From: Nemertoderma westbladi
Taxonomy: Eukaryota > Animalia > Xenacoelomorpha
NCBI GenBank assembly: GCA_032718475.1
Contig: JAUCBJ010008747.1
Span: forward strand, 1 to 64,000
Direction of reading: 5' to 3'
DNA: 64,000 bases
Under the pieces are notes generated by a model. The model made no database searches and was not told where the DNA came from. It worked only from the letters and a program-made list of their open reading frames with translations. A program made the position numbers and the translations under genes. Position 1 is the stretch's first letter. The number at the start of each line of letters is the position of its first letter. Positions 3 to 23,985 of the stretch are shown here, piece after piece.

Positions 3-807
3 ATGATCGCACGCTCCAAGTATTAGCCCTACCCAAAAAACCATATGTTAAATTAATCCCCAACCATCTCTATACTAGATACTGTAGTTTTATGTTTGAA
101 GTAATGCATAATCCCTCGTGCTTGCCATGCCATGCCTAAAACTACGACCTTGTTTGAAATGTTAAGGTGGATTTTTCTATATAAATAAAAATCACGTAAA
201 GTTAAATCTTAATTGTTTTTACTGTCTTAGTAAAACTTCTTAATATTCCTAGTAAAATCTTATTCTTATTCTTATTCTACAACACGTTATTCTTAAATAT
301 AGAAACTAACAATGGAGATGACATATCAAATATGTCCTTACAACCCTTCCCACAGAGTGGCCAATGCTCAAATGCTTAGGCATCTAATAAAATGTAGAAA
401 GCCGGGGGTGGAGTTTGTCAAAGAGTGCCCCAACAATCCAGTGCACAGTTTTCCAAAAGAAGAAAAGGAGTTTCACATAAAGAATTGTCATTATAGGAAT
501 GGGTTACCACATGTTGGTAAGCTCATGAGTTTAGAAAACGATTTGGTTTAAAGAATCAATATGGAGAGAATGAGGGAAAAGTACAACAAGAACAAGATCA
601 ATGCGAATGGCCGACAGAATGGAGAGAAGAAGCTTGGGATTGAGACTGATGGACTAGGTTTGGTTTAGTTTAGTTTAGTTTGTTTTGTTTTGGTTTGGTA
701 TAGTACTATAAAAATATTATTATTAAAATCTTTATTAATTAATGCAATTTATTGTATTTTTGGGAGCAATAGAGCTAATGCGAGCTATAGGGACAATGGG
801 AAGGACA
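3..807 (+). repeat. Left arm of ~800 bp inverted duplication (partner 11594-12378)
   Basis: atgatcgcacgctccaag at 3 is the reverse complement of 12361-12378. Identity continues through the CHHC ORF to gggaaggaca (~807), matching 11594-11603. Confidence 0.95.
312..643 (+). pseudogene. GTSF1/Asterix-like double CHHC (U11-48K-type) zinc finger gene, frameshifted copy
   Basis: Two CHHC fingers: CPYNPSHRV..RHLIKC and CPNNPVH..FHIKNC. A 1-nt deletion near 510 relative to the other copy shifts off the tail ..QCEWPTEWREEAWD* (TGA 641-643). Confidence 0.75.
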
Positions 808-830
808 GACATATTTGATATGTTGTCTCC

Positions 831-2060
831 ATTAAATTAATCCTCAACCATTTCTATACTAGATACTGTAGTTTTATGTACCATATGACCATTGTCAAAT
901 CGCCTGAGAAATGACAATAAACATCTGGTTTGCAATAGATTGACTTCTTTCACATTGTACTTTATGAAGCAGCCTGCGCATATGTTAAATTAATCCCCAA
1001 CCATCTCTATACTAGATTCTGTAGTTTTTTGTAATGCATAACCCCCCCCCCCCCCCCCCCCCTCCCCACGTATGCAATGCCTAAAATATTTCTTCAGATA
1101 CTATAGTTTAACATTAATTAACATACCCCATCTAACGCAGTAGCCCATTATATGCAATTTTCTCCGGCACACTCCCTGCTTCTCAAATCACACCCCATTT
1201 CCCATCATAACTAATGTTTTACATTTAATTAACCCAATGAAATGTATTTATTATTCCCCCAATCCAATAGCACGTCTCTCTCTCTTTTTTTATTTCTATT
1301 GGTTCCCCCAAGCTTCACTTTTATTTTCATTGGTTACCCTTTCCCTTATAAACCCCCAACCATCGCTTTGAACTTTACGTACAAAAATATTATCGACTTG
1401 CTTTTGATGATCTTACTTTTTATTTAAAGTTATAATACATTTATTGTTATTCATAATATATTGTTATACATAATACATTAATTGTTATACATAATATATT
1501 GTTATATAAAACATTTATAACATCAATGTGATTTGATTTTCCTTCTTATTATTCCCAATCAAGCAATTTTCTTTTCCAATACCACGAATCAATCTGCAGG
1601 TAAGAACAATAAATTTGTATTTTTTGTGCATTCGTTTAGTTTTAACATTATTGCCTCAAAATTAAATCAACCCTGCGAAACCATCCCAAACTTATTATTA
1701 TTATTATTTTTTAGTTTTTTTTATTTTATAGCAAACATGCCTAGATCATCAATATTCGTTGACTGTCCTGTCTGCAATAAGAACATGCGTAGTGATAGTC
1801 TCAACAAACATCTCGGAACTCATTTTAAACAATATTCATGCGATTGTTGTAACACCTGGATACCTTCTTTCACATTGTACAGTAATGTATGAAGCAGCCT
1901 GCGCATATGTTAAATTAATCCTCAACCATTTCTATACTAGATACTGTAGTTTTATGTACCATACCACCATTGTCAAATCGCCTGAGAAAATTACAATAAA
2001 CATCTGGTTTGCAATAGATTGACTTCTTTCACATTGTACTGTATGAAGCAGCCTGTGCGC
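831..2060 (+). repeat. Dispersed copies of a ~150-170 bp module
   Basis: The aaattaatcc(c/t)caaccat(c/t)tctatactagat..tgtagttt block occurs at ~50, 834, 988 and 1912, and inverted at ~12290-12338. The accattgtcaaatcgcctgag..gaagcagcctg block occurs at ~888 and 1966, and inverted at 12380-12473. Confidence 0.8.
1737..1892 (+). pseudogene. Truncated N-terminus (C2H2 finger) of a Polinton pPolB-like ORF
   Basis: MPRSSIFVDCPVCNKNMRSDSLNKHLGTHFKQYSCDCCN aligns with MPMSSRIIVCPVCEIEMRSNNLSHHLQTHFKQYKCDNCN at the start of ORF 28477-29820. It is preceded by a plausible 5'UTR intron (GTAAG at 1600, pyrimidine tract-TAG at 1731). Confidence 0.7.
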
Positions 2061-2633
2061 CTAACCGCACATAATTAAATAAGGCCCTCTTTTAATACAT
2101 AAGTCCCACTTTTAATACATAAGTTATATACAGTTTATCTTCAATTTATTTAATTTGTTTTTATTTACAACCCTAATTGTTCTATTGTATTATAATTTAT
2201 GTTTTATTATAACAAGCTATATCCTGTTAATCTTTATTAATTTTATTTGTACTGAGGTTTTCGAGTGTGCTGTTTCCAATGGTCCTATTCTCAAAATGAT
2301 CTAACCTACTGTATAATTAATTACTTAAGTCTGCGAGGTATGCGTAATTAACAAATCTCATTTACCAGTTTTCCTTAAAAACTATGAAGCTATATTGCTT
2401 AAGAGTTCTGAGGGGCGAGCCATGAGGCAAGATGTTTGAGACTTATTTAGATATATTATTACTTAATTTTGACCCCCCAGTCGGTATATATTACAATATA
2501 GGCTATATCTTTTTGTGGAGTCACAGAGTAGTCTGAAGTTCCGAGTCTGCTGCTAGAGGGTGAAATGTCTCAAAGTGAAAACCATACAGTAGCTATGAAT
2601 TGGTTGCTAGGTAATAATACTACATTTTGTATT

Positions 2634-4183
2634 TGAGTGAGTGAGTGAGTGAGTGAGTGAGTGAGTGAGTGAGTGAGTGGGTGGGTTGGTGGATGGGTGG
2701 GTGAGTGAGTGAGTGAGTGAGTGAGTGAGTGAGTGAGTGAGTGAGTGAGTGAGTGAGTGAGTGAGTGAGTGAGTGAGTGAGTGAGTGAGTGAGTGAGTGA
2801 GTGAGTGAGTGAGTGAGTGAGTGAGTGAGTGAGTGAGTGAGTGAGTGAGTGAGTGAGTGAGTGAGTGAGTGAGTGAGTGAGTGAGTGAGTGAGTGAGTGA
2901 GTGAGTGAGTGAGTGAGTGAGTGAGTGAGTGAGTGAGTGAGTGAGTGAGTGAGTGAGTGAGTGAGTGAGTGAGTGAGTGAGTGAGTGAGTGAGTGAGTGA
3001 GTGAGTGAGTGAGTGAGTGAGTGAGTGAGTAGAGAGTAGTGAGTGAGTGAGTGAGTGAGTGAGTGAGTGAGTGAGTGAGTGAGTGAGTGAGTGAGTGAGT
3101 GAGTGAGTGAGTGAGTGAGTGAGTGAGTGAGTGAGTGAGTGAGTGAGTGAGTGAGTGAGTGAGTGAGTGAGTGAGTGAGTGAGTGAGTGAGTGAGTGAGT
3201 GAGTGAGTGAGTGAGTGAGTGAGTGAGTGAGTGAGTGAGTGAGTGAGTGAGTGAGTGAGTGAGTGAGTGAGTGAGTGAGTGAGTGAGTGAGTGAGTGAGT
3301 GAGTGAGTGAGTGAGTGAGTGAGTGAGTGAGTGAGTGAGTGAGTGAGTGAGTGAGTGAGTGAGTGAGTGAGTGAGTGAGTGAGTGAGTGAGTGAGTGAGT
3401 GAGTGAGTGAGTGAGTGAGTGAGTGAGTGAGTGAGTGAGTGAGTGAGTGAGTGAGTGAGTGAGTGAGTGAGTGAGTGAGTGAGTGAGTGAGTGAGTGAGT
3501 GAGTGAGTGAGTGAGTGAGTGAGTGAGTGAGTGAGTGAGTGAGTGAGTGAGTGAGTGAGTGAGTGAGTGAGTGAGTGAGTGAGTGAGTGAGTGAGTGAGT
3601 GAGTGAGTGAGTGAGTGAGTGAGTGAGTGAGTGAGTGAGTGAGTGAGTGAGTGAGTGAGTGAGTGAGTGAGTGAGTGAGTGAGTGAGTGAGTGAGTGAGT
3701 GAGTGAGTGAGTGAGTGAGTGAGTGAGTGAGTGAGTGAGTGAGTGAGTGAGTGAGTGAGTGAGTGAGTGAGTGAGTGAGTGAGTGAGTGAGTGAGTGAGT
3801 GAGTGAGTGAGTGAGTGAGTGAGTGAGTGAGTGAGTGAGTGAGTGAGTGAGTGAGTGAGTGAGTGAGTGAGTGAGTGAGTGAGTGAGTGAGTGAGTGAGT
3901 GAGTGAGTGAGTGAGTGAGTGAGTGAGTGAGTGAGTGAGTGAGTGAGTGAGTGAGTGAGTGAGTGAGTGAGTGAGTGAGTGAGTGAGTGAGTGAGTGAGT
4001 GAGTGAGTGAGTGAGTGAGTGAGTGAGTGAGTGAGTGAGTGAGTGAGTGAGTGAGTGAGTGAGTGAGTGAGTGAGTGAGTGAGTGAGTGAGTGAGTGAGT
4101 GAGTGAGTGAGTGAGTGAGTGAGTGAGTGAGTGAGTGAGTGAGTGAGTGAGTGAGTGAGTGAGTGAGTGAGTGAGTGAGTGAG

Positions 4184-4184
<1 letters not shown>
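2634..4184. repeat. (GAGT)n / (ACTC)n microsatellite, ~1.55 kb
   Basis: Near-perfect tetranucleotide array with minor interruptions near 2680-2700 and 3030. Confidence 0.99.
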
Positions 4185-4223
<39 letters not shown>

Positions 4224-4505
4224 TATTGTCTTCACATTAACTGTTACATAACTAACATCGGTAATATGCACTAAACAAGATACAAAATGAGACGTACAAA
4301 TCAAAATATCTACCGTCACCCTCAAAATAAGACAGCACATTATCATACAAAAATATTACAGATGCTTATATAGACAACATTATAGCCGTGTGAGGACCAG
4401 ATGTAATACATAGTAGAGTAACATATATTTATATTCCCAACAAACACACAAACACACATAATACTAACTAAGTATATCAAACATTACATATATCGGGCTG
4501 TTTAC

Positions 4506-7500
4506 TCAATCGAATACATTATCTAATTTTGAGATAAATTTTGCTATTTTGGCTTGGTTATCCAGACAGAACATCTCAGTCATAGATAACCAAGACAGGG
4601 GGGCGCATTCTCGTCTTAACGTCCTTGTCATAGGACAATCTACAACTATATGGGCTTCGGTCTGAATCCCACCACATCCACAAACTCGGTCCTCGGGTTT
4701 AGCCCTCTTCCATCTCATCCGTTCTACTGGGAAGTTATGGCTACCCAGCCGAAAACGGGTCCAGGGGATGCGATGACGTTCGGGAACTGAGGGGTCACAA
4801 TAGAGCTGGGGGGAAGTTAAGTCCGGGTTCATTAGCTTGAACAGGTGGCGTTTCGTACTCGTTGAAAGTGAAACGTTTTTCTTGACGAGTCGGGAACCTT
4901 CGTCTATAACATTACGCTGTTCTGATTTCAAAGAATCTATTTTCGCGGACATCGATGTGTTACCATCTTTCGATATTTCTATTGCGACAGCAAGAGGGGA
5001 GTCTTCAATAACCTTGAATTTAGTAAGGAACTTTCGTTGTCTCTCACGTACCAACGATTTCAAGTCAGGGATTCCCGCTTCAATGAGACATATGTCTCCA
5101 CACGTGGTGGGTCTAACACCTAGCAAACTCCTTACCATTGACATATATAGAGCCTCGACGTCATTCAGATTAGCACCTAACCACGTTTCGCAACCATATG
5201 TTATTGCTGACACAACTGCTGCATTGAACACTTGTTTTTTAATCATAAACGGAATGTCCGGGTTTTTCATTAGAAATGAACTGTACTTAAGCCGATGGCA
5301 TTGTTTCGCAGATGCATGGAGGGATACTGCAGTTGATACTAAACCATCACTGGTGATTGGTGAGCCAAGATAAATATATGATGAAGTATGTTTTATGGTA
5401 TACTCTTCCAGAATGATATCTTCCCTGTCACTCAGAGTGCCGTTTATCACCATAAACATCGATTTCTTCTCGTTCAATGTCATACCAGAAGACTTGCAAA
5501 AATTAATTAGTATATCCAGCTTGGCCAAAGCGGCCAATCTATTTGTTGCAAGCACCGCTGTGTCATCCATTAGTAAAACAGAATGTAGCAACTTTAGCCA
5601 ACTATCGGGGGTGAGGGAACGTAGGGCACGGACAAATACATCTATTAGCAACGTAAACAAATATCCACTGGCAGGGGAACCTTGACGGAGCCCTTTATTA
5701 AATGATACTATAGCAGATCCAATCAGTGCATGTGTTCCTTTGTAAATTGATTGCAATGCACGGAGCATTCTGCCACCGCAACCTCTGTCAAGTAATATCT
5801 GGAACAAGTAATTTCTATTGACGTTATCGTATGCAGTTTTGAAATCTATGAATACCAAAAACAGGGTCTTATTAGTTTCTCTGGCATAGTTACACAGGAG
5901 GCGGAGTGCTAAGATCTGTTCTAAACAGCCTCTTCCTTTACATGAACCGGCTTGCTCAGGGAGAGGTCTCAACCAGGATTGTAGTCTGAAAGTAAGTATA
6001 GCGTCATAGAGCTTAGCTAGAGAATTTATAATACTTATACCGCGGTAATTCGAGCATATCAACTTATTTCCTTTCTTAAACACAGACACAAATCGCGTGT
6101 AACACCAGTTCAAAGGATATAGCCCCGAGGTAAACACACAGTTTAGTATAAAAACAATAGTTAAAAGCCATTGGACAGGTAAGGCTTTCAGGTAATCTGC
6201 AGAAATACCATCAGGGCCACAAGCTCTCCCGCGTCGCAGGTTGGATGCAGCGTTATAGACCTCGTTAATTGTTATGTCATCGTCAAGTAATGGTATATTT
6301 ATGTCTGAGACAATCTCCCGTTCAACAAATGTGTAGTCATTAAGTAGCTTTGAATAGTGTGCGGCAAACTCATCGTCAGTAGGAGTACCGGATTCTTGGT
6401 CAGATAAGACTTCTCCATTCCAGTCTATGGCTGCCCAAAGGCGTTTTGGGTCATTATTGGTTGCGAGACGCGCCCATCGACTCTTCGTTGATCCGAATCC
6501 TGCCGTCACTGGCTCCTGTGTTACATAATTCGAGGTATGTTTTGAGTTAGATATGTATTTGTAAATATTTAGTGAGAAATCACCGCACATTGCATCAATA
6601 TCAGACTGGGCCGTTTGTATAATGGGTTGGTAAATGGTAGCGGGGCGAGCCATGCAGTGAGCATAGCTCGGAGGAATAGCTAACTCTAACAACGACTTAA
6701 ACTTATCAAGTGAAGCGCAGTTGGGTTTAATTCCCTTAACACAATTCACTGTTGGGGGTCCAGATATTGCATCTGAGGCATTCAAAAGCTCATCGCCCAA
6801 ACATTTCGCTCGGTTGAGTAGTTGTGATGACGTTATATTTGTTGCAACAACAGTTACGCTGATCGGAGCATGGTCAGTGGGGAGTCGTAAATCTCTGTCC
6901 ACATTCATGCATTTAATAGCTGAGGGGACTTTAGATACCTCGTTAACCGGGGATACTAAATAATCTAGAGCAGAAACCCATTTATCTTTTATCCTAAACG
7001 TGAGACCACCCTGATAAAGGGATGAATGAGTTGATAAGCCGTTTAAAATTATACATCCAGTGTCATGACAAATGCGTTTGAAAATTTTCCCATGAGAGTT
7101 TATTGTCTGGTCGGGCCATGGTTGGTATTTCCAACCATTGTCCAAAGCAAATGCTGGGTCGGGTGTACCTATACGGCTGTTAAAGTCACCTCCTACAACA
7201 AAAACATCGTCACACAACAATTTACTTTGAACAGTACTAAACGAACATAAATCAAAATATTTCGATTCTTTTGGCGGGATGTAACATCCACCTATTTGTT
7301 TATTACTAACTGATGGGATAGTAACCCAGATTTGGTCTTCAATTGTTTTGTCAACCCGAACAATAAAATCTACCAGATGTGGCTTCACAAATAAGCTTAC
7401 GCCACCACGGTGTTGACGCCCTGTATGTCTTACACTACTACAAACAAAAGAAAAGCCAGGTATAGTAAAAGATAAGTTAGTTTTCACCTCAGACAAAAAT

Positions 7501-7619
7501 AGAATATCAAACTGTAAAAAGTACCTTACTGTATATAAATCGTCAAACTTGTTTTTTATACCAGCAATATTACACCATACAATCTTTAGTTCTCCATCAC
7601 ACGGCCCAGTTAAAAATCC
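4506..7619 (-). CDS. LINE ORF2: apurinic-like endonuclease + reverse transcriptase + C-terminal Cys/His motif
   Basis: Endonuclease motifs WCNIAG (upstream of the called start), LSE, GGV, GDFN and TDH. RT motifs GPDG, YRGIS, FIDFKTAYD, GLRQG, LMDD and YLG. C-terminal CGCGGIQTEAHIVVDCP. The frame is stop-free from 7619 to 4506. Confidence 0.93.
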   Translation of the reverse strand, partial: GFLTGPCDGELKIVWCNIAGIKNKFDDLYTVRYFLQFDILFLSEVKTNLSFTIPGFSFVCSSVRHTGRQHRGGVSLFVKPHLVDFIVRVDKTIEDQIWVTIPSVSNKQIGGCYIPPKESKYFDLCSFSTVQSKLLCDDVFVVGGDFNSRIGTPDPAFALDNGWKYQPWPDQTINSHGKIFKRICHDTGCIILNGLSTHSSLYQGGLTFRIKDKWVSALDYLVSPVNEVSKVPSAIKCMNVDRDLRLPTDHAPISVTVVATNITSSQLLNRAKCLGDELLNASDAISGPPTVNCVKGIKPNCASLDKFKSLLELAIPPSYAHCMARPATIYQPIIQTAQSDIDAMCGDFSLNIYKYISNSKHTSNYVTQEPVTAGFGSTKSRWARLATNNDPKRLWAAIDWNGEVLSDQESGTPTDDEFAAHYSKLLNDYTFVEREIVSDINIPLLDDDITINEVYNAASNLRRGRACGPDGISADYLKALPVQWLLTIVFILNCVFTSGLYPLNWCYTRFVSVFKKGNKLICSNYRGISIINSLAKLYDAILTFRLQSWLRPLPEQAGSCKGRGCLEQILALRLLCNYARETNKTLFLVFIDFKTAYDNVNRNYLFQILLDRGCGGRMLRALQSIYKGTHALIGSAIVSFNKGLRQGSPASGYLFTLLIDVFVRALRSLTPDSWLKLLHSVLLMDDTAVLATNRLAALAKLDILINFCKSSGMTLNEKKSMFMVINGTLSDREDIILEEYTIKHTSSYIYLGSPITSDGLVSTAVSLHASAKQCHRLKYSSFLMKNPDIPFMIKKQVFNAAVVSAITYGCETWLGANLNDVEALYMSMVRSLLGVRPTTCGDICLIEAGIPDLKSLVRERQRKFLTKFKVIEDSPLAVAIEISKDGNTSMSAKIDSLKSEQRNVIDEGSRLVKKNVSLSTSTKRHLFKLMNPDLTSPQLYCDPSVPERHRIPWTRFRLGSHNFPVERMRWKRAKPEDRVCGCGGIQTEAHIVVDCPMTRTLRRECAPLSWLSMTEMFCLDNQAKIAKFISKLDNVFD

Positions 7620-8327
7620 TTACCCACTGCTTTATAAATAACGTCATCTCCTCTCTTGACGCTCTTGGCCTTCCAGTCAATATATACCACCTCACCCGCG
7701 TTTATTGGTTTATTCTTTTCTTCAATGAGGACCTGTATGAGTTTTTTCCGTTCAGCTTGGATCTTTGGGCTCACGTCTTTCTTAACATATATTCCTTTAT
7801 ATTTAGAGCTTTCAGATGAGAGATTCTTCGCACCCGTTATGGCGATATCCCTTTCATAGTCAGAAAGAAAGCGGATCAAAATCGGACGGGGCCGGGTCGT
7901 ATTCCCTGTCTGCTCGTTGGGGTTAAACCTTCCGAGACGCCTCAGAGAGTACTTAGCGTCGCTTGGTAAACCTGTTACTTGTAGTATCTCTGAACAAACG
8001 ATTTTTGTGTCAGCTAATTCGCCCTCTTTGACGCCGCGTATTATAATGTTCCTAGACCTGCTTTCGGCATCGAAATACTCCAATTGGCGTTGGTGGATAG
8101 CTAGTGTTTTCTTACAGTCTTCCATCTCCGATTTTAAGGTAACATTGCTTCTCTGCTCCGCTGCCAACTTGTCTTTAAGAACAGACACTTCCGTTCTTAG
8201 GGCTCCCAACTCCTCGATCTGTTTTCGCACTAATGATATATCGCTCTTCATGTCAATCATTTCGGATCTTATAGCATCTCGAATTATCTCCGCTAAGTCG
8301 CTGCCATTTGGTTGGCTCGGTGTGTTC
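7610..8327 (-). CDS. LINE ORF1 (coiled coil + RRM-like), N-terminally truncated by the microsatellite
   Basis: Heptad-rich segment, then RSRNIIIRGVKE, RRLGR, RPRPILIRF and IYVKKD..ER motifs typical of LINE ORF1. The THSL repeats in the called ORF are translated microsatellite. Confidence 0.85.
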
Positions 8328-9174
8328 GTGAGTGAGTGAGTGAGTGAGTGAGTGAGTGAGTGAGTGAGTGAGTGAGTGAGTGAGTGAGTGAGTGAGTGAG
8401 TGAGTGAGTGAGTGAGTGAGTGAGTGAGTGAGTGAGTGAGTGAGTGAGTGAGTGAGTGAGTGAGTGAGTGAGTGAGTGAGTGAGTGAGTGAGTGAGTGAG
8501 TGAGTGAGTGAGTGAGTGAGTGAGTGAGTGAGTGAGTGAGTGAGTGAGTGAGTGAGTGAGTGAGTGAGTGAGTGAGTGAGTGAGTGAGTGAGTGAGTGAG
8601 TGAGTGAGTGAGTGAGTGAGTGAGTGAGTGAGTGAGTGAGTGAGTGAGTGAGTGAGTGAGTGAGTGAGTGAGTGAGTGAGTGAGTGAGTGAGTGAGTGAG
8701 TGAGTGAGTGAGTGAGTGAGTGAGTGAGTGAGTGAGTGAGTGAGTGAGTGAGTGAGTGAGTGAGTGAGTGAGTGAGTGAGTGAGTGAGTGAGTGAGTGAG
8801 TGAGTGAGTGAGTGAGTGAGTGAGTGAGTGAGTGAGTGAGTGAGTGAGTGAGTGAGTGAGTGAGTGAGTGAGTGAGTGAGTGAGTGAGTGAGTGAGTGAG
8901 TGAGTGAGTGAGTGAGTGAGTGAGTGAGTGAGTGAGTGAGTGAGTGAGTGAGTGAGTGAGTGAGTGAGTGAGTGAGTGAGTGAGTGAGTGAGTGAGTGAG
9001 TGAGTGAGTGAGTGAGTGAGTGAGTGAGTGAGTGAGTGAGTGAGTGAGTGAGTGAGTGAGTGAGTGAGTGAGTGAGTGAGTGAGTGAGTGAGTGAGTGAG
9101 TGAGTGAGTGAGTGAGTGAGTGAGTGAGTGAGTGAGTGAGTGAGTGAGTGAGTGAGTGAGTGAGTGAGTGAGTG
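8328..9174. repeat. (GAGT)n microsatellite, ~850 bp
   Basis: Perfect tetranucleotide array in the same orientation as 2634-4184. Confidence 0.99.
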
Positions 9175-9490
9175 GAGCAGTGGGGGAGTGAGGCACTGAG
9201 ACACAGACTATGCCTCAGCTTCAGCCTTAACCTCAGCCTCACCCTCAACCACTTCACCAGCACACCACTTCACCAGCACACCACTTCTCCCCACAGGAGA
9301 ATATTTGTTTATCTGTTGTCAAAATCTGTTTTGCCTGTCTTGTTAACTAATTTGATGTTTTGGTTACTCATTCATTATGCATTTAAAATAGGATCAAGTT
9401 GACTTTATTTGTCTAATTAAACATATTATTATGAAATTACATAATTAAAAACGACTAAATATAATAAATATTTCAAACAATCAGTTATAA

Positions 9491-10243
9491 TTAATGTCTC
9501 GCATTAACTGTACGACTGTTCATACGCCGAGGTCGATATACAACAGTTACTGGAGATATAACTTTTCCATTCCTTACTCTGATTTTCTGTCCATTTTCAT
9601 TGTCATTCTCATCTGATTCTTCCTCACTGTCATCGCTACTCTCCTCTGCTTCTTCTACACTACCATCATTACTCTCATCCGATTCATCCTCATCACTCTC
9701 ATTTCCATCATTATCACTCTCTTTATGCGAATGTTTCTACATTTCATTCAATTGTCTAATTATTTTCTGAAATTTATTTTTATTTCCTAATACATGTCTT
9801 AATATCTCCTCATTATCTGAGTCATTCTCCTCCCCACTTTCATGTTCCTCGACTTCTTTCTCGCTCTCATTTTCTTCATCACCACTCTCATTTTCTTCTT
9901 TCTCTATCTCACTCTCTGTTTCATCATTCTCAACCTTTTCACTTTCCTCTGATTTATCATCTTCCTCACTCTCATTATCCTTTTCACTAGGTGGCTGTTT
10001 CTGTATATTTTTCAAAATATTCATGATTTTCTCGAATTTATGTTTCATCATTTGTTTAATCTCTAGAAAGTCACTCTCAACTCTCTTTTTGTTCTCTTCT
10101 TCACTAAAAATATCATCATTATTTTTTAATTTCTTTGGAGAAGGTTCCATTACACCTTCCTTTCTATGTATACTCATATGGCGGGATATATTGTCTCGTT
10201 TCATTTCTTTATCACAAACCATGCATTTTTCATAACTAGGCAT
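9491..10243 (-). pseudogene. C2H2 zinc finger + NLS + long acidic tracts protein (Polinton-associated type), one in-frame stop
   Basis: CMVCDKEMKRDNISRHMSIH, PSPKKLK and D/E-rich runs. The frame continues past TAG 9737-9739 with another acidic tract to TAA at 9491. Confidence 0.65.
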
Positions 10244-10893
10244 TTTATGAAAGAAAACTGTGTTATGTTTTTAAATGTCTACAGCTATATTTTTTCAAAA
10301 TTTTCAGTTTGTTTAGCTAGGGATTCACTTACAAATATAAATCTCAGTAAATATATATCAGAAGATGGAACATTATTAATAGAGTTCAAATTTAATGTTT
10401 AAAGATTAATGTTAATAATTGAAATTTATATATGGGATAATAATTGAAATTTATATATGGGAGGCTATCGCTTATTAAGTGAGGTTTGTGTATGGTATAG
10501 TGTGGCATAAAGTTAGGCATACAAGACAAGAGGCTTGCCTCACCCCCCTATTAGGGAGTGAGGTGCGGTACAAAGTTAGACCTTGATGCCAGGGTCTATA
10601 GGCCAGAGTGTGGTGTTGTATGACATAGTGAGGCATTGTAGCTAACAGTGAGGTATGTCTTACTGCTTCATATAAGCCATGAAGTGAGGTGAGTGAGTCA
10701 TTAATTGAGGTCTATTGGGAGTGTGGCTAGCAGAGTAAAGCTCTGTTAAATCAGATGAAACCGGTTTACCTTATCATGTGATGGTCATTAAGGAATATTG
10801 CTGTTTGAGTTAGACTCGTTAAGACATGAAACAGGTAAGTCTTGGCGAGTGAGACCTCATAAATAACTACATATGCCTCACAATAATAGAGCT

Positions 10894-11429
10894 TTATCCT
10901 ATACTCTTTGTAGAAAAGAATCCACCTTCCATCTGAGAAAATATATAATTTGCATACCCTACAGTTAGTTTGACAGAACAATAATTCATACAACCATGCC
11001 TAGTGTCAATGTGAAAAGGACAGTTAGCATTAATGTGGAAATGACAATCTGCTTTAGGGTTAATGAATTTCTTATTTATTCCAAATATTTCCAGTAGTTG
11101 CGCAGTTATTCTAAGTTCATTCTCCAAAACCATTTGTTTATACATTCCAGAAACATATACTGTTTTTCCTGTCAACTGACGTCTAATATATTGTTTAAAT
11201 ACATCATGATTTAGGAAACCATATTCCCAAGACTTTTATCTCTGCTATTTGCTACTTTTCTTTCTTTAGTTGAATTTAACGTTAAATGGAGTGGTGCTTT
11301 AATGTAATAACAAGATTGTATACAGTTTGATTTCAAATCATAAACCACAAATTCTTTAAATATTACGGAATAAAATGAGTCATTGAGTACATGGTATTGA
11401 AAATCAACAATAAACCCGTTAATTATCAA
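10894..11429 (-). pseudogene. DnaQ/DEDD-fold exonuclease-like protein with Maelstrom-like Zn motif, frameshifted
   Basis: ORF 11211-11429 reads FIVDFQY..IFKEFVVYDL..YIKAP. After a frameshift near 11235 the other frame reads SWEYGFLNHDVFKQYIRRQLTGKTVYVSGMYK and runs into ORF 10894-11175, which ends CPFH..YCSVKLTVGYANYI. Confidence 0.55.
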
Positions 11430-11593
11430 GTGAATCAGAAAATATTTATAAAAATAATAAGCAGGATAAGAATTACTATCAAAAAGAATAAAAAGTTATA
11501 AACATCTTAATTAAATATAATAATGGGTGAGGAAAATTGTAATGAACTTAAAGACTTTTATTAACCAATAAGAAATAGTAGAAATTGTACATT

Positions 11594-12378
11594 GTCCTTC
11601 CCATTGTCCCTATAGCTCGCATTAGCTCTACTGCTCCCAAAAATACAATAAATTGCATTAATTAATGAAGATTTTAATAATAATATTTTTACAGTACTAT
11701 ACCAAACTAAACTAAACCAAACCTAGTCCATCAGTCTCAATCCCAAGCTTCTTCTCTCCATTCTGTCGGCCATTCGCATTGATTTTGTTCTTGTTGTACT
11801 TTTCCCTCATTCTCTCCATATTGATTCTTTAAACCAAATCGTTTTCTAAACTCATGAGCTTACCAACATAGTGGTAACCCATTCCTATAATGACAATTCT
11901 TTATGTGAAACTCCTTTCCTTCTTTTGGAAAACTGTGCACTGGATTGTTGGGGCACTCTTTGACAAACTCCACCCCCGGCTTTCTACATTTTATTAGATG
12001 CCTAAGCATTCGAGCATTGGCCACTCTGTGGGAAGGGTTGTAAGGACATATTTGATATGTCATCTCCATTGTTAGTTTCTATATTTAAGAATAACGTGTT
12101 GTAGAATAAGAGTAAGAATAAGATTTTACTAGGAATATTAAGAAGTTTTACTAAGGCAGTAAAAACAATTAAGATTTAACTTTACGTGATTTTTATTTAT
12201 ATAGAAAAATCCACCTTAACATTTCAAACAAGGTCGTAGTTTTAGGCATGGCATGGCAAGCACGAGGGATTATGCATTACTTCAAACATAAAACTACAGT
12301 ATCTAGTATAGAGATGGTTGGGGATTAATTTAACATATGGTTTTTTGGGTAGGGCTAATACTTGGAGCGTGCGATCAT
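11594..12378 (-). repeat. Right arm of ~800 bp inverted duplication
   Basis: Reverse complement of 3-807 with few differences. Confidence 0.95.
11737..12069 (-). pseudogene. GTSF1/Asterix-like double CHHC gene, copy with in-frame TAA
   Basis: The 69 aa ORF ends LPLCW*. The same frame continues AHEFRKRFGLKNQYGENEGKVQQEQNQCEWPTEWREEAWD* to 11737, giving ~110 aa in total. Confidence 0.75.
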
Positions 12379-15141
12379 GCGCGCAGGATGCTTCATAAAG
12401 TACAATACGAAAGAATGCAATTTATTGCAAACCAGATGTTTATTGTAATTTTCTCAGGCGATTTGACAATGGTCTACATGATAACGAAGCTGGAGGTTTA
12501 TAATTTAAAATTTGTGGCAACCCCGTTGGCATACAGTATAACTCAACATAGGATTCAATGGGATTAGTCATGCTACGTCTAATAAAGAGCCCAAACAGTC
12601 TCAGATTATTGGGGGACTGAGCCAAGGCCAAACTGGCCCACGTATTTTCCTGAAACGGTAATTTATGTTTTATGATTTATGCCCCGCTCGCATCTTTATA
12701 TTTCATTCTATCATTCTATTGTATGACAAAAATAATACAAATGTACTGTATATTGTATTGTATGGTACCTATTGTATTGTATATTTCATCTACTGTACCT
12801 ACTGTAGTACTACTATCTATTCATCACGCATCCCCTGTCTGATTGATTTGTGTCAAATTAAATTGCCTTTGGCAACATTATTTGATACAAATCGATCGAT
12901 TAAACAATTAATTAATTGTATAACCGACCAATTAATTAATTAATTAATGACCTACTTAACACCTAAGGTGTGAAGTTGGTCCAACTGTTGCAGAAAAGGG
13001 GTAACCATTACTACTATGGATTCAAAACCAGCATGCGGGAATATAGACCAACTTATGGTTATTTTAATTAATAATACACAACGAGAGTACACCGTATCTA
13101 TTGGAGATAATCTTTGAACGGAGCAATGCTCCAATACTATATGTTTCTAAAAACATAGGCCCTGAAGACCGTTTTAAGCTTCCAATGCTGGCATTGTATG
13201 AAAATGAAGTTAGTTGTTCTTATTATTAATGAAAAATATATTGTGGTTATGGTTACAGACAGACATGAATATCATATAGCCAACACAGAAAGTAATAACA
13301 ATATAAGAGCATCTAATTAGGATGATTAGTCAGTTCAGTTATTTCCGATTGGTCAAGTAATTTGTAGCAAGATTAATCGAGATAAGTAAGTACGTACTGC
13401 ACCATATTAGTAGTAGGCAATACACCTTAATTGAAACAGCGTCTGCCATAGTAGTAGTCGTAGTCGCGTGCCCAGAGGCACAGCACCAGACAGGCTGGCA
13501 TTTAATTTGCTATAATTCCATATCGAGTAAAATACGGACATATGAACCGTGAATGTTTGGAAGACAACGCAAAGTAAATAAACAACAGACTATTAAAAGC
13601 AGATATTTACAAATACAACCCGAAATATACAGACAATAGTTCGTACGATATAGTGATATTGAGGACAAGTATTAGTAAAAATAGCAATTAAAATCAATCC
13701 AATTACATCAGTCAAAGTATTGCTGGATCAGCTTCTTTTGATACACATATAATATGTTGATGATTAGAACAAGTGTTAAATAAAATTATCAGTTAAGCTT
13801 AAAGTCTACCATATGTTAACCCTATTACCACTGGGGGGGGGGGGGGGGCATACTCGGCCCCTTCCTAGTTTTTACTTGCTGTATCTATGCAACCACATTA
13901 TGTACCAGCCCATTTTTTTTATGAGAATTAGTCAAATTTAATGGCGCATCTTTTGCAAAAAACGGCGTTGCAGTTAGATTTCAACTTTTCGATGTGGGTG
14001 CCATCTAAAATTTGGTCCCCAGCAGAAATTTTTTTGAAATTTTCAAATTTTACAAGGTCATTTGTGAGTTAGTAATTATCTTTATGTTGGGGCTTTTTTT
14101 TATTGATTCTGATTCGTATGGAGCACTCTACTACTCTATATAAGTATAAGGGAAGTGGTACGTTATTTTTTGTGCACTAAAATTAGGGCGTGGCACTTCA
14201 AATTTTCAAAATTGCAATATTCGTTAAATACTCCGAAGTTTTGATTTCAACGCATTTTGATGGGTTTTCTGGCCCACTTAATCGATTGAAAGTAATATAG
14301 AAGACTCAATTCTTAGTGGTACATCATTTTTGGTGCACCAAAGTTAGGGTGTGACAAGTAGGCTTACTTCAAATTTTCAAAATTATGATATTCGGAAAAT
14401 ACCACAAGGTTTTCATTTCAACCCATTTTTATAGGTTATCTGGACCGCTGAATCGATTGAAAATAATATTGAAGCTTCAAGTCTTAGATGTGTGCCATAA
14501 GTTGCAAAGCTCAATAATAATGAGTCAACAATCATTGGTTTACCCGACTTTATTAATAATTAACACACCGTGTGATTCTAATACAAACAGAGATATATTG
14601 AAGGTCAACCAGGATTCGCCTTAGTTTAGCTTATCTGGTAGGAATGATACCAATTATATTGCAATATAGATAAAAATAAAAATATACAGTACTCGGCAAT
14701 CCAATAACCAGTATTGCCAGTAATCATTATTGACACGTCTGCATGTCTTATATATTGACAGAAGACTGAATCACTGCTACTGATTTAGGATTATAATTAA
14801 TTACCCACGTCAGTAGTACAGCTCTGTACCAGTAGTCAGGTTACTGTTTTACAGTTTAATACCGCAGCATCCTAACTACAGTTATTAATAGGTACGCAGA
14901 GCTAAAATATTATTAAGGCAGTATTGTCCGCAGTATACCAAGATAATAAAACTTGGTATATTAGCACCCATGCGCCCTTCCATAATACAGGGCTAAAAAC
15001 CTGTAGGTTCGCAATACTCTTTTTTACCAAATGTGTTTATATTCATGTATATATTCAAACGAAATATCAGAATGTAGGAACGCCTAATAGGCTATTTCGG
15101 GCTAATTATACTGTGGTGCTATTACTGCTCCAGGGAAAGTA

Positions 15142-15937
15142 ATTCTTATACCAAACAACACCTACGTAATTAAGCCTAGTGTTCAAAGTGTTAATTGCAA
15201 TTATATTGCTCATTAATCCTTTATCTCATACACAAATCGTGACTAATCTTTTATTTATGCTTAATTCATTTCACACTTCAGAACAATCATACATATTTAA
15301 TTTATTTTTATACTACAGTAAAGAGCATACTAATCTAGTTTTTTCTAGTTTTTTGCGAAGCTGTGCTCTTATAAATTACAAACTTGAGAAGCTGTGTCCT
15401 ATGAAAATTATAATAACATGAAATCACTCAAAAAACTGATTTTATAAACATTACATACATAGTAATTTCAAATTAGGTATGACACATAATAAAAGAAATG
15501 CCGCTTTTACTTTGATCTGTTTATTTACAATATATTTCAATAGGATTACATAATTGCAACACACAATAATGACAACACTGCTTTTTTCTTTGATATTTTT
15601 AATTGCAATGCTATCAACCTAAAGATAATCTCTAAAACTATGCAAAATTTTCTTTTCATAAAATGACAATTTTTTAAAAGATTATAAAAGGATTATTTTT
15701 CCAGTCATAACGGCGCCAATAGTCTATTTTTAAACCCTAGTGAAACCGTAATGAAACCTCTCCTAATTGGATAACCTACACTTTTGGCTACATTTTGATT
15801 GGTTTTTGCTTCCGATTGGACAAATCGTTATACAAATCCATATATAAAGCATCTTTAGCAAAAGTTTTTCATTCTTTCGAATAATCACTCATATTCAAGT
15901 AAACTTTATCATTTTTTGTTATAATTTGTTTTCATTA
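15142..15937 (+). repeat. Polinton left TIR
   Basis: attcttataccaaacaacacctacg.. is the reverse complement of the sequence ending at 30907. Similarity runs ~790 bp. Confidence 0.93.
15765..15850 (+). promoter_or_regulatory. CCAAT (ATTGG x3) + TATA promoter inside the TIR
   Basis: attgg at ~15766, 15798 and 15816, then tatataaa at 15841, ~140 bp upstream of ATG 15983. Mirrored in the right TIR upstream of pPolB. Confidence 0.6.
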
Positions 15938-15982
15938 ATTATTTTAAATAATTGACAAATAGCTTATTCATCTCACTCACTC

Positions 15983-17646
15983 ATGGATCTAACAACCAAC
16001 GAAAATGAGATCTCAGTATCCGACAATTCATTTGGGTTTTATTTCGACTCCTCCAACCAAAAGTTCCCATTCACTGTCAACACCTTTCGTAATCATCCTA
16101 CTCGCATCCCTTCTCATTATGCTCATTTTATAATGAGGGCCTGCTATCAGTTGGAAGACGGGGTTTATCAATCTTCAGATGAAACATTATACTGCCCAAC
16201 AAATGATTGCCTTAAAGTGCAAAAGTCACAAGATATTGTATCTTTCAATATTCCCACTATTGAAGAAACTTTTACAATTCCATCTTCTGTTTTTACCTTC
16301 ATTCGTGACAACCATAATCATGAAAGTTTTGAAAAAATGTTGGGACCATCATCGTTGAAAGCTACATTTTCTGCTGATAACTCACCCTTCGATTTTCATG
16401 CAACTGCAAAATCAATGTTTCTTCTAATTTGGAATCATAAACCAACAATTAATCCAGAGAACAATCAAGAATGTAGGATATTCAAATTATTCAATATGGA
16501 TATTATTACTTTGTGGGAGAAAATGAATGAGCTAATTTGTATATATGACAAAAAAACCGAGTTACATTTTGGTTTTAATTTTAAAGTTGCTCAGTCATCA
16601 AACACTCAACCATCTACCTATACTGAAATTGTCAACCTTACGGATACCATCAATGGAGGGTGGCTACCTATCTCAGCTACAGCTATCGCTCTTCTTCGAC
16701 ACTATCTCGAAGTCTGTCGTCCATTCATCAACACACAAATACACTTTATTCTTCATCCTGGCAATTATGTTTCCTTCGATAGTTCAACATTTGGCTATAT
16801 TACAAATCTTCAACAAGAAAGGAATATTGCCATTGCCTCAGGAGTAGAAGTCGATGCTGGTAAAGCCATAATCTCACTACATGATTCGATATTACTAACC
16901 CCAGAAGAAGTAAACAAATTAACATTTGATACAGATGAAGCAGATGAATTTGATGAATTAAGTGAGAAACGATTAATCTCTGAAAGAATTAAACTTCACT
17001 TTATGATGCTTCGAATACTGTTGAAATCAGTGATAGGCTCTTGCATACTGCCTTCACTTTTGACAATGATGATCGAGCAACGGAAGCTTTGATACAACTA
17101 CAAAATATGCTTCATGATGTTGCTACTTCAAAGGAAATAACTCTTCCCAATCATCAATGCATGGAATTGAGCAAATCACTCACGAGTTTCATTTACACCT
17201 TCAAGGGGACAAACTACGTTGGAATCTGGCCATACAAACAAAAAGATAATAAATTTAAAACAATATTGTTTACAAGTGGGATGAATATCAAGTCAGATTT
17301 TTTCAAAAAGTTTCATGTAATGCGACAATCACCAAATCATCCTCAATGTTGCATCGCACCACATATTCATGTTCGTTATGCAAATGGTGAAACAATATTA
17401 ACCAATTTGAAGTCCCACAACCAAATTTTGCTTTCAGCAAATTTTGGAGTTGAGCATTGCATCAATTTCCTCAAACAAAAATTAGACAACGCGGTTTATC
17501 TTCCCAACCAACATCATTTGAATCTGTTTCATCCTACTTCCCTCTCAACACCACCAAAAATGTCCAACATTTCTAAAGAAATGTATAAAATAAAATTACC
17601 TACCATATGTCATAAAGACGAAAAGAAAATGAAACTAGATGATTAA
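15983..17646 (+). pseudogene. Polinton accessory protein with PC4-like ssDNA-binding repeat(s), frameshifted near 17040
   Basis: Overlapping ORFs of 369 aa and 201 aa. FIYTFKGTNYVGIWPY..SGMNIKSDFF resembles the PC4 pattern FKGxxYxxIRxY..GIxL. Confidence 0.5.
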
Positions 17647-18063
17647 CTCTTTCATATTATTCATAATTATTTAACTCTTGTGTGTAAGGAATAATTATCT
17701 GCTTTGTGTGACTTATATATCTTCAATGTTTATTTTGTTATATGTCTCTTGTATATAAGGAATATTATATATCTACTTTGTGTGACTTATTATATCTTCA
17801 ATGTGTATTTTGTTATATAACTAACACATTTCATAATTATTTAGTATAATATATTGATGATGTCGGCTATAAAAATTCAAAGTTTCCCTCATAATTTAAA
17901 AAAAAAATAAAGGAAATTTTTTCCACTCAACTTTTTATAATATATTTTTATATACTATATGACTAAATGATATTGACACACAACTATATATAAATACATC
18001 TACATGATTAAATATAATTAACACACACACACATATACACATTACATAATATATAAAATAACA

Positions 18064-18492
18064 TCATCTCTTTTTAGTCTTTCTTCTCAACCAGCATGCT
18101 AGTACTTTTTCATTATGCAACAACTCACTACTAAATATTTTCAATGGATTGACATTTTTTGGACGCTCACATAAATAATATAAGCAATATCTACCACAAC
18201 TTGTACGAAAAGGATGCTGAATTATCTGACGTGTTCTTTCCCATACAATTGTATTACGAACCAACCAATCTTCAATTCTTGGAGTTGGATATTGAGCAAA
18301 TGAATCAAAATATTCACCTTTACCATCACATACATATATAGCTACCCAATGAGTTCCAGGCAAATGACTTGGTTGAATATTACTAATGAAGCTCATCTCT
18401 CTAGAATCTATCTGAGGAAGCTTATCCACTGGAAAAGATCCTCTATAATGATTACCAACAGGATAATCATTTAAATCATATGAGTTTAACAT
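18064..18492 (-). CDS. Adenain-like cysteine maturation protease
   Basis: PGTHWVA (His), EYFDSF (Asp), Q..SCGRYCL (Gln/Cys). Confidence 0.92.
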   Translation of the reverse strand: MLNSYDLNDYPVGNHYRGSFPVDKLPQIDSREMSFISNIQPSHLPGTHWVAIYVCDGKGEYFDSFAQYPTPRIEDWLVRNTIVWERTRQIIQHPFRTSCGRYCLYYLCERPKNVNPLKIFSSELLHNEKVLACWLRRKTKKR

Positions 18493-18502
18493 TTCTTTTA
18501 TT

Positions 18503-19745
18503 TTAAAAGATAGTTACATTACCGTCTTTACTTATATTGAGACTCTTATCATATCCCATCCAGAGAATAATGTTTATTGTTGCTGGTAGTGCATTAGCAA
18601 ATTGCAACTCTAATCTTGCATTGCCAACATGTCTAGGTAAGAAATCATCACTATCTAAGTAACCATCTGGAGCAAGGTTCAAAATAAAGAAAGGGTACAT
18701 ATCACGGAAGCTAGTAGGAGTAATTGCGTTACTAGTGCCTCGTATGATAGAAGTAAGGTTATTCTGAGTATTCATTTATATATTGATTGGCACCAAAATT
18801 TGGTTTATAAGTGACACCACCAAGAACTTTTCCATCCAATGTTATTTGTAAAAAATTTACATCAAAATGCTGAAATGCCATTGAATTACGTCCATATATA
18901 CCTTTATATGCATCATTACGAATCATTCCCAAAATAATAAATCTCGGAGTATTGTTGCCAGCAAATATGTTTTCACGTACATGTGATCTCTGACCATTAC
19001 CAACTGTAAAAGTTGTAACTTCATTTTGTATGAATGGATATATAAAATCTTCCCTCTGTAGAAGATCAACATGTTCTTTCATGAGACTATCTTCTATTTT
19101 TATTCGTTTTGTTTTTAAGACAGCTTTTGTAATATTTACTCTACCTCCTTCAATGTCATCTCCACAAGTTAAACTAAAGTTATCAGGTGCTCTTGTTAAA
19201 GTAATTCTAACACTTGTTCTTGGTGGCAGTACTTTTATTTGATCAAAGATATCAATAAATAATAATCCTTGTACTTGATATTGTGAGCTTTTCAACGCTT
19301 CAGCATTTTCAAAAACAATAGGAACTCCATTTGTGGTTTGCTCTGCATATCCAGCTGCCGTAAGTATTGTTTCTTTAGTATTTCTATCATTAACTAAAAC
19401 AGCCTTTAAAAATGCTTTGTAAGCATAGTTTGAGGTATTGGGTTCAACCTGGCATTCATTAATCAATACATTAATATTAGAGAATAATGTTGATAAGGTT
19501 AATGGTGTTATTGAAACCACACCATTATTTGGTCGAGCTGTAGTTGATACTTCATAGACTATTTGTAGAGTTGTATCACCTCCTACAGTATAATATTCAT
19601 CTGATTTTTCAATTACAAAATCGATTACACTAGTTCCAATTCCAAGTGTTGTTATTGGATATACTTCATGTTCAAAACTTTCATTAATAATACTCTGTGT
19701 AGTAAAGTTGCTAAATAAATTTAATTAATCTATTGTTTCACTCAT
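18503..19745 (-). pseudogene. Major capsid protein (double jelly-roll), with nonsense and frameshift
   Basis: ATG at 19745 (MSETID*LNLFS..TQ..EVYP), NYAYKAF, PRFIILGM, FQHFDVN, RLELQFANALP..I. Stop at ~19726 and frameshift at ~18770. Confidence 0.85.
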
Positions 19746-19765
19746 TGTTATAGATTTTAACAAAA

Positions 19766-20345
19766 TTAACTAAAAATATCATCACAATCGTGTCTTTGAC
19801 CTTTGGTAACCTTTCTCCTTTGATATTTATTAACATTTATCCTTTTCCTTTTTTGTGGTTCGTTTATTGATGATGCATTTGCATTAAGAACCTCACGAAT
19901 TATTTTATTTGCTACACGTCTAGTTATTGGTTTGGTTCTTTTTAGCAATTTGTTGCATAGTTTGTTTAACTATTTTTCTTCTTGATTTTTTGAGTAATGG
20001 TACTCCTTTACGAAGAGCCGCTCGTGCAACAGGTTTAGCAATTTTTGGAATGACTTTTGCTGCCATTTTTACAATATTTCCAAATAATCCACGACCACGC
20101 TGCCCATACCTAGCATAGATAGTTCATGTATTCAAACGTCGACTTCTTAAACCACCTCGAAAATAAGGGAGACTTCCACTACTATTTCCCCATCCTCTTC
20201 CATCTTGCTTATAGCGCATTAGAAGGCGATATGGTGTAGTTTGACCAATTCTTCTTTTTCCTAAAGGATCAGTAGGATCAGGATATGAACCACCCTTAAC
20301 TAAGTAATTATCAACGCTTGACATTCTTTTTATTAAAAATATCAA
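19766..20345 (-). pseudogene. Basic virion core / membrane-lytic-type protein with GRG protease sites
   Basis: QDGRGW and QRGRGLFGNIVKMAAKVIPKIAKPV (amphipathic helix), with a basic tail ending DDIFS. In-frame TGA at 20124 and a frameshift at ~19940. Confidence 0.7.
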
Positions 20346-20390
20346 TTAGTAATATAAAATGAAGAAACAATGATTTGTTTTAGTCAACGT

Positions 20391-21182
20391 TTATTGATGC
20401 TTTAATAATAAAGTAACAACTACAGTCCCAGAATTAAGGTCTATCAAATTTCCATCATCATCTTTTAGCTGAATGTTTATTATTTCAATGTTTTGCATAT
20501 CAACAGGCTTATAATTTATGTTGTTGAATTCACGATGAACCAAAGACCCATAGTCACCTTCATATGGAATTGTTCTCAATAATGGCTTCAATTGATGTCA
20601 TACTATAACATTTGCACTTATATTGGAATAAATATTAATATTACCACTAAAGAAATCACAAGCTTTTTGAATGAAAAAAGTATCTTCATCGAGCATCATA
20701 GAACGGTTTATTTGCAAATATCCATTTTGTTTAATAACTTGGAAACGTTTTTTACTAAAGTAATTTTCTTCTTCCAACCCCAACAAACCTAGCATTCGAA
20801 TCAATTTATTACTATGAAAACGTATACGTTTGATTTTTTTCAAAAAGTGAAGCGAAATAGTATTATATAATGTATTAAATTGAATTTTTACTCTCATATC
20901 TAAAACACTCGCATTCAATTGTTCAATCAAGGTTTCTATATTGTCATAACAACCGGCAGATAATATATATCTCTTTATTTTTCCACGAACTCCTTGTGTA
21001 GTAATTAGAGTATCATTAATATTATACATTGAAGCCAAGTAAGTAATTTCTGATAATCCCACCATCCACATCCCACTCAAACGTAATGGTTGTGATAATT
21101 CTACATTAAAATTTGATGGTTTATTCTGTGGAAATCTTTCAGGTGATGAATTAGAAGGTAAATATAAAACAGTTTGCTGCAT
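20391..21182 (-). pseudogene. Minor capsid (penton-like) protein paralog 2, in-frame TGA at 20598
   Basis: LYLPSNSS..FPQN..F.VEL..L.G.W.VGLSEI.Y, IYSNI..VIV*..PLLRTIP and IQLKDDDG..VTL. Confidence 0.8.
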
Positions 21183-21184
21183 TA

Positions 21185-22009: not shown

Positions 22010-22049
22010 TTTTGGAAATTATATAAATTAAGTTAAATTTAATCATAAC

Positions 22050-23110: not shown

Positions 23111-23204
23111 AACTACGTTTTTGACTTATACAATTACACACACAATCACAATTGATTTTCAATCTCTTAAACCAAGACATTATTATTAATATTATTACTA
23201 CTAT

Positions 23205-23432
23205 TTATATATAGTTCAAAAAAGCAATGTCGTTTATTGTTTTGATATGTTTTTTATTAGTTATTTGCTTTGAATTCTTGAGTGTCTTCTTCTTCTTCTT
23301 TTTCTTCATCTTCTTCTTCTTCTTGATATTTTTTAAGAGTTTTGTTTGTAATGGAATAGGTTTAGTATATTTTTGTTGTTCTAATAAATTATATTGTTCT
23401 GGTGTTATGAGATACATTTTATGAAATGACAT
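23205..23432 (-). CDS. Small Lys-rich Polinton protein (possibly truncated)
   Basis: KMYLITPEQY N-terminus and poly-Lys; abuts neighbouring genes. Confidence 0.5.
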   Translation of the reverse strand: MSFHKMYLITPEQYNLLEQQKYTKPIPLQTKLLKNIKKKKKMKKKKKKKTLKNSKQITNKKHIKTINDIAFLNYI

Positions 23433-23434
23433 GG

Positions 23435-23800: not shown

Positions 23801-23985
23801 GTTATTAACTTATTTGAAAAAAAAAAGAATATAAAACTTCAAAACAAACATTTATTAACTAATACGCTTATAAGTGACAAATTTGCATAAAATATATACA
23901 CAAACTAATTAATGATAGAAAGTAGCATATTATTGATATTAAAAAGTAATATACATATGATATATATTGATCAATATTATTATCA

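Follow-up and report, generated by a model that had tools for sequence, protein, structure and literature searches.

Introduction

Proteins of the GTSF1 family are zinc-finger helpers of PIWI proteins, which silence transposons. The passages of PMC9385479 on mouse GTSF1 describe four basic residues of finger 1 (R26, R29, K36, and K39) as RNA binding and three tryptophans (W98, W107, and W112) as defining the PIWI-binding surface, with the W98A/W107A/W112A substitutions reducing MIWI binding more than 60-fold. Lineage-specific GTSF paralogues, including mouse GTSF1L and GTSF2 and four genes in Drosophila, are presented in parts of PMC9385479 and PMC9539491 as common, with tails that diverge fast, and some of them as dispensable. 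Structures are available for mouse GTSF1 (6x46) and for silkworm GTSF1 in the SIWI-piRNA-target-GTSF1-Maelstrom complex (9nhb and 9nhc).

We compared with these systems a locus in a window of animal-type DNA (the whole stretch analyzed, 64,000 nucleotides, 35.5% G+C, no N). We consider the following reading probable: a small intronless GTSF1-family gene occurs twice in the window, as inverted and nearly identical copies that are each interrupted, and its intact form, seen in public DNA contigs, is likely a short PIWI cofactor.

Results

Two interrupted copies of one small gene

The gene lies at 312-643 on the plus strand (copy A) and again, nearly identical and in inverted orientation, at 12069-11737 on the minus strand (copy B). 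The features of the two copies are as follows.

3-807, plus strand: copy A of the repeated unit; aligns to 12378-11593, with its outer end cut by the window start
178-190, plus strand: TATATAAATAAAA, a TATA-like box some 120 nt ahead of the ATG, with identical letters in copy B; read from the sequence, putative promoter
312-551, plus strand: open frame present in copy A: 79 codons, both CHHC fingers included, then the frame change and stop
510-511, plus strand: 1-nt gap of copy A relative to copy B and the public contigs (alignment)
518-520, plus strand: TAA letters, also found in copy B; not in frame here
599-643, plus strand: tail letters QCEWPTEWREEAWD and TGA in copy A, in another frame
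808-831, plus strand: inverted fragment of the ORF start (24 nt), joining the unit to the next T repeat
11593-12378, minus strand: copy B of the repeated unit (alignment, repeat finding, tblastn)
11737-12069, minus strand: coding region of copy B, 110 codons and TGA, a single frame except for the TAA (translation)
11986-12048, minus strand: CHHC finger 1, residues 8-28
11893-11955, minus strand: CHHC finger 2, residues 39-59
11860-11862, minus strand: in-frame TAA, codon 70; CAA in the public contigs
11740-11772, minus strand: Trp motif W100-P-T-E-W104-R-E-E-A-W109-D110

Both copies sit in an inverted repeat of about 805 bp (3-807 versus 12378-11593), the arms of which are 99% alike when gaps are ignored; repeat finding over the 64-kb window scored the arms as 508 nt plus 169 nt, each at 99%. 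In the alignment the copies are separated by 8 substitutions, one 20-nt gap inside a GTTT-type run of the 3' region, and one 1-nt gap. The last of these belongs to copy A and falls between 510 and 511, where copy B has a T (11870). At codon 70 both copies read TGG TAA GCT. Translation of copy B meets the in-frame TAA at 11862-11860 and then runs through 40 further codons, ending in QCEWPTEWREEAWD, to a TGA. Translation of copy A gives the two CHHC fingers, a frame change, and a stop at 549-551; the letters of the TAA (518-520), of the tail (599-640), and of its stop (641-643) are retained, all out of frame. No copy in the window therefore keeps an unbroken reading frame: both carry the TAA, and the 1-nt gap affects copy A in addition. 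No third copy was found in the 64 kb by tblastn. The preliminary description of this DNA had reconstructed a protein of about 110 amino acids from the two copies, placing one TAA in 12069-11737 and an additional 1-nt deletion at 312-643, and this reconstruction was correct in every detail.

At 35.5% G+C, a run of 40 open codons past the TAA has by our own estimate a chance of about 5%. The pattern exceeds chance on three grounds: the double Pfam match in each copy, the 40-codon open frame, and a family motif in the tail that is almost never seen after shuffling.

Assignment to the GTSF1 family

Each copy has two matches to Pfam zf-U11-48K (PF05253), with an E value of 8e-15 and 54.7 bits against a cutoff of 21.1, and residues 8-28 and 39-59 fit the pattern C-x5-H-x9-H-x3-C. 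A phmmer search of the PDB placed mouse GTSF1 (6x46_A) first (E value of 1.3e-5) and a GTSF1 chain (9nhb_E) second (2.5e-4); other CHHC proteins matched more weakly, with E values of 0.074 for U11-48K and 0.29 for TRM13. The AlphaFold model, built from a 16-sequence alignment, had a mean pLDDT of 73.5, with values of 82 to 96 in the fingers and of 50 to 59, which is low confidence, in the tail. The best Foldseek matches of the model were again 6x46 (E value of 1.1e-3, probability of 1.00) and then 9nhc_E (5.7e-3).

Sequence databases returned distant relatives. A HMMER scan of 1.84 billion representatives gave 229 matches at an E value of ≤1e-3 and none at ≤1e-10. These were 30 to 53% identical, mostly within the fingers, and none exceeded 53% even there, in a collection from which the species' own proteome is possibly missing. 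Two fingers were present in 140 of the best 150 of the 229 matches. When the read-through protein was used as the query with X at the stop, 5.8 billion proteins (own proteome again possibly missing) contained no candidate close relative sharing three 5-residue words. A profile search found 83 proteins, 12 of them with NCBI names (11 from insects and 1 from a fish); 8 of these 12 are named gametocyte-specific factor 1, or its -like or homolog forms.

In finger 1 of copy B, residues A17, R20, K27, and K30 align to the mouse basic residues R26, R29, K36, and K39, and three of the four are kept. Copy A has Q20 and keeps two of the four. Judged by its sequence, the gene is a member of the GTSF1 family and is closer to GTSF1 than to other CHHC proteins. 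The layout claimed for it beforehand, CHHC-CHHC-linker-acidic Trp motif, is borne out by Pfam, PDB, and motif evidence; its miniature size is not new, as short relatives are known.

The tryptophan tail beyond the TAA

Among the 140 two-finger relatives from the best 150 matches, 56 have the motif [ED][ED]xW[DE] after finger 2, at a median of 37 residues on. With 200 shuffles of each tail, the motif was matched 0.7 times on average and at most 3 times. The read-through protein has EEAWD 47 residues past finger 2. In an alignment of mouse 6x46_A with a relative, the mouse tryptophans are at 98, 107 (within DEDWD), and 112. The arrangement W100-x8-W109-D has the same 9-residue spacing as mouse W98/W107 and is in frame only past the TAA. 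Mouse W112 has no counterpart, the protein ending at D110, one residue past W109. In an alignment with 15 relatives W109 is an invariant column; these relatives were chosen for having the motif, so that the column is an illustration and no independent test. The 40-residue tail alone, searched against a protein atlas, returned a best score of 0.80 to bacterial hypotheticals, which is uninformative. We interpret the recovered tail as the family's real PIWI-binding-type Trp motif, one that likely binds PIWI.

Of the two-finger relatives, 35 of 140 are no longer than 120 residues. Five relatives of 98 to 123 residues end at the motif, and the short GTSF1 form is therefore already known.

An unbroken form in public DNA

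Contigs from three public DNA runs (X1 to X3), which carry one organism label, come from two studies, and contain 40 to 51% of the unit's 31-letter words, were placed on 11400-12600; such contigs are not assignable to loci, and rare variants are dropped from them. The preliminary description had asked whether any copy has a sense codon in place of the TAA, and the outcome favors its reconstruction. At position 11862 every contig has G on the plus strand, which makes codon 70 CAA (Gln), and this accounts for the full depth in each run (729.1 of 729.1 in X1, 99.1 of 99.1 in X2, and 107.9 of 107.9 in X3). One X3 contig of 532 nt spans 11703-12222 with no gaps relative to copy B, 11 substitutions (10 of them coding), and no stop, and it therefore carries an uninterrupted 110-codon frame. 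The base missing from copy A is not missing from any X1, X2, or X3 contig. The CAA form may be an allele of the window loci or a further copy.

The contigs are not uniform. At 11871-11985, X1 has two contig classes, one identical to the window (depth of 237) and one with 5 differences (depth of 460). The latter is the majority class (460.5 of 697.6, two-thirds of the depth) and carries C39S, losing the first Cys of finger 2, a zinc ligand, so that other copies are decaying too. X3, which comes from the same sample as X1, contains a third sequence class, so that at least three classes occur within that sample. Run X5, with the same species label, had next to none of the words and gave three contigs of low likeness on the outer repeat, which says nothing on absence.

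Neither the T at 11862 nor the gap at 11870 appears in the contigs of X1, X2, or X3, which speaks for a gene that is intact in the organism, with errors or rare variants of this one assembly as the source of the TAA and of the 1-nt gap. However, the two window copies share the TAA in spite of 8 differences elsewhere, and absence from the contigs proves little, given that they drop rare variants. The window also differs from the runs by 0.4 to 2.7% across the whole region and therefore represents another haplotype or strain. We consider this explanation by assembly errors or rare variants unlikely.

Splicing and genetic code

The shared TGGTAAG had been put forward as a possible splice donor, and GTAAG is a good donor consensus. 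The stop in the window copies might be bypassed either by splicing from TTG/GTAAGC or by reading TAA as sense. Excision of 50, 65, 74, or 80 nt from this donor would open the frame of copy A, with acceptors that are purine-rich coding sequence. In copy B, however, a scan of all GT/GC..AG removals of 10 to 200 nt found none from the TGGTAAG donor that opens the frame. The T of the donor GT is moreover the mutated base itself, read as C by the contigs (TGGCAAG), so that the unbroken form has no GT and the splice donor proposal fails. TAA, TAG, and TGA each terminate long ORFs in the window, with TAA ending 13 of the 19 checked. An alternative genetic code was rejected because all three stops terminate long ORFs. 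Altogether, bypass of the stop is very improbable.

Substitutions and the origin of the gene

Copy B differs from the main contig by 7 nonsynonymous and 2 synonymous substitutions, the stop codon excluded, which over 262.7 nonsynonymous and 64.3 synonymous sites gives a pN/pS of 0.86 from small counts. Between copies A and B there are 3 nonsynonymous changes and no synonymous ones. One contig has 10 differences in 330 coding positions against 1 in 190 flanking positions, which is not significant (Fisher P = 0.063), and the 3' flank at 11593-11717 is itself divergent (6 of 125). The substitutions among copies look neutral-like, with no sign of purifying selection, in counts too small to exclude constraint or positive selection.

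Neutral-looking substitutions, the lack of introns, and a position among LINEs are features that a recent processed pseudogene of the host GTSF1 gene, a retrocopy duplicated later, would share. A retrocopy is nonetheless quite unlikely here. The 3' end (11593 or 807) shows neither a poly(A) tail or A-run nor a duplicated target, a TATA-like box lies about 120 nt before the ATG, and an unbroken form exists. In addition, no protein more than 53% identical was found among the 1.84 billion representatives and no candidate among the 5.8 billion proteins, with the own proteome possibly missing. We read the unit instead as an ordinary young gene duplicate: it is a new, low-copy, intronless GTSF1 member with the short layout, freshly inactivated in this assembly.

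Flanks and copy number

The flanking features that bear on how the unit was copied are as follows.

12266-12474, minus strand: T/S repeat, about 150 bp, immediately outside copy B; further copies at 42-115, 832-1045, and 1864-2058
1737-1892, plus strand: short ORF that opens with a CxVCxKxM...H...H finger; same strand as copy A and 0.9 kb downstream of it
9740-10246, minus strand: ORF that opens with the same finger type; same strand as copy B and 1.3 kb downstream of it

At its inner end the unit finishes in both copies with ...GGGAAGGACA. Beyond this point copy A is followed by 24 nt of its own ORF start in inverted orientation and, after these, by a T/S repeat of about 150 bp, and X1 and X3 contigs have a joint of the same kind; copy B continues into unrelated sequence. 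A contig with the flank of copy B (10820-11603) runs on into unlike sequence and not into the unit; the letters of this loose end beyond 11603 have no match in the rest of the window, which precluded rebuilding an empty site. On the outer side, as far as the window reaches, both copies have a T repeat, a 39-nt insert, and an S repeat. The inner flanks of the copies differ, and some copying at the DNA level has therefore occurred. The flanks show DNA-level copying in a repeat nest without defining an element.

Contig depth of the unit is about 730 in X1, 100 in X2, and 108 to 177 in X3. This is about that of the Maverick described below (390 to 1080 in X1, 60 to 215 in X2, and 58 to 170 in X3) and is 5 to 40 times below the depths of the T/S and other flanking repeats, with the T/S repeat itself at 5 to 25 times the depth of the unit. 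The lowest contig depths were 115 in X1, 50 in X2, and 34 in X3, and 9300-20000 offers no clean single-copy baseline. The copy number of the unit is somewhere in the low single digits, the exact figure not being fixed by depth.

The preliminary description took the intronless, multicopy state of the gene as a sign of capture by a mobile element. The state itself is confirmed, with no intron and at least two copies. The capture is not: neither terminal inverted repeats nor a target-site duplication were found around the unit (the outer end of copy A lies beyond the window); it has no poly(A) tail and no transposase of its own; its depth is low; and tblastn found no CHHC gene in the neighboring Maverick. 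Cargo of that element, at 15142-30907, was rejected for this last reason.

A more general form of the mobile reading makes the unit the cargo of a nonautonomous element that has the T/S repeat and a leader of about 115 bp as its end, spread by transposition and possibly retained as a free GTSF1 look-alike that disturbs PIWI silencing. The T repeat plus leader (42-160 and 979-1085) indeed precedes two different inserts, the GTSF1 unit and an unrelated segment at 1034-1863 that contains the start of a zinc-finger ORF resembling the first ORF of the Maverick. There are also two inner flanks, one in copy A and in X1 and X3 contigs and the other in copy B; the contig with the copy B flank (10820-11603) continues into unlike sequence instead of the unit; and one sample (X1 and X3) holds at least three sequence classes. 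However, neither terminal inverted repeats nor a target-site duplication were found around the unit, it has no transposase, and the two inserts share no common 3' end. Its Maverick-like depth, 5 to 40 times under that of the flanking repeats, makes it low-copy. The window truncates copy A on its outer side, and the outer flank that is visible is the same T/S repeat. In the full-text literature, among the matches listed, no GTSF1 gene carried by a mobile element was found as a precedent. We therefore regard a mobile cargo as doubtful. A bolder version, in which a repeat-borne, self-copying GTSF1 look-alike with its own promoter and a minimal PIWI-cofactor gene (the fingers and the Trp motif) would soak up or misdirect PIWI when intact, as a countermeasure of the transposon to piRNA silencing, and the host would survive by knocking copies out, as in the shared nonsense codon, is in our judgment improbable. 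An ordinary young duplicate remains the preferred reading of the unit.

Surroundings of the two copies

The window contains several other repeats and one host gene. Within 2570-9214, a LINE on the minus strand has an ORF2 with endonuclease and reverse transcriptase (7619-4506) and an ORF1 (about 8290-7610). It sits between (TCAC)n tracts at 2570-4222 and 8290-9214 and has the appearance of an element targeting this microsatellite or terminating in it. The blocks at 12513-13226 and 13941-14654 have contig depths 5 to 40 times that of the unit in the three runs and are unclassified high-copy repeats, like T/S. A Maverick/Polinton at 15142-30907 has terminal inverted repeats of about 445 bp (15142-15586 and 30461-30907) and encodes a protein-primed polymerase B, an A32-type ATPase, and an integrase-like ORF with a weak chromodomain match; the polymerase frame is interrupted twice, at 26765-26767 by an in-frame TAA and near 27650 by a frame change. 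The CxVCxKxM...H...H finger that opens the ORFs at 1737-1892 (plus strand) and 9740-10246 (minus strand) also opens the first ORF of the Maverick (28480-29847, minus strand), a likeness of only 23 to 47 residues, and the link of the region to the Maverick is limited to this 47-residue finger motif.

Further along, exons of an SLC34-type Na/Pi cotransporter lie at 43060-43584 and 50639-51061; the best named relatives are fish proteins (45%), and an unnamed protein reaches 63%. A 166-nt inverted repeat (36907-37072 and 49082-49247, 99%) brackets the exon at 43060-43584, and one of its arms is the end of a second LINE reverse transcriptase ORF (36907-38499). Just past the last SLC34 exon, the stretches 51200-53600 and 54070 to about 62000 consist of long minisatellite arrays, whose periods are 24 nt and 28 nt.

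Discussion

The protein encoded by the unbroken form would bind RNA through its two CHHC fingers and PIWI through its C-terminal W-x8-W-D motif. What points to a function as PIWI cofactor is the set of conserved residues, from which we infer it. In the lineage of the window's assembly, a recent C-to-T change would have turned CAA into TAA. The TAA would then have reached the second copy by one of two routes, an inverted duplication at the DNA level of at least about 0.8 kb among the repeats of this region or a gene conversion from arm to arm, and copy A may have lost its one base afterwards. Both the order of these events and the route of copying are our proposal.

The hidden tail was recoverable by comparing the broken copies. 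The locus adds one young, fast-changing GTSF paralogue in a repeat nest, apparently intact in some DNA samples but interrupted in the window's assembly. For the locus to matter more, the unit would have to be mobile and to counteract silencing.

Compared with known systems, the unit gene is like mouse GTSF1 (6x46) and silkworm GTSF1 (9nhb and 9nhc) in its two N-terminal CHHC fingers, and copy B shares with mouse GTSF1 three of the four basic residues of finger 1 and an acidic Trp motif with the W98/W107 spacing. In contrast to the mouse and silkworm proteins, which have 149 to 167 residues or more, it has 110, and its fingers are only 30 to 50% identical to theirs. It also lacks a counterpart of mouse W112, ends one residue past the second Trp of the pair, and has an additional W104. 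Unlike in the GTSF1/Asterix system, the copies in the window are both broken. U11-48K and TRM13 have the same finger type (PF05253), but their matches, at E values of 0.074 and 0.29, cover one finger only; the Trp motif was compared with GTSF1 only.

An equally small layout of two fingers and a linker is found in the 113-residue gametocyte-specific factor 1 of Bicyclus anynana (P0079), which, like four further proteins of 98 to 123 residues, ends at [ED][ED]xW[DE]. The Bicyclus anynana protein is 38% identical over 55% of the query, and the host here is not evidently an insect. Extra copies of family members are likewise found among the mouse and Drosophila GTSF paralogues; here, however, the copies are 96 to 99% alike, inverted, embedded in repeats, and just inactivated. 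The state of this paralogue fits the known rapid turnover of piRNA cofactors.
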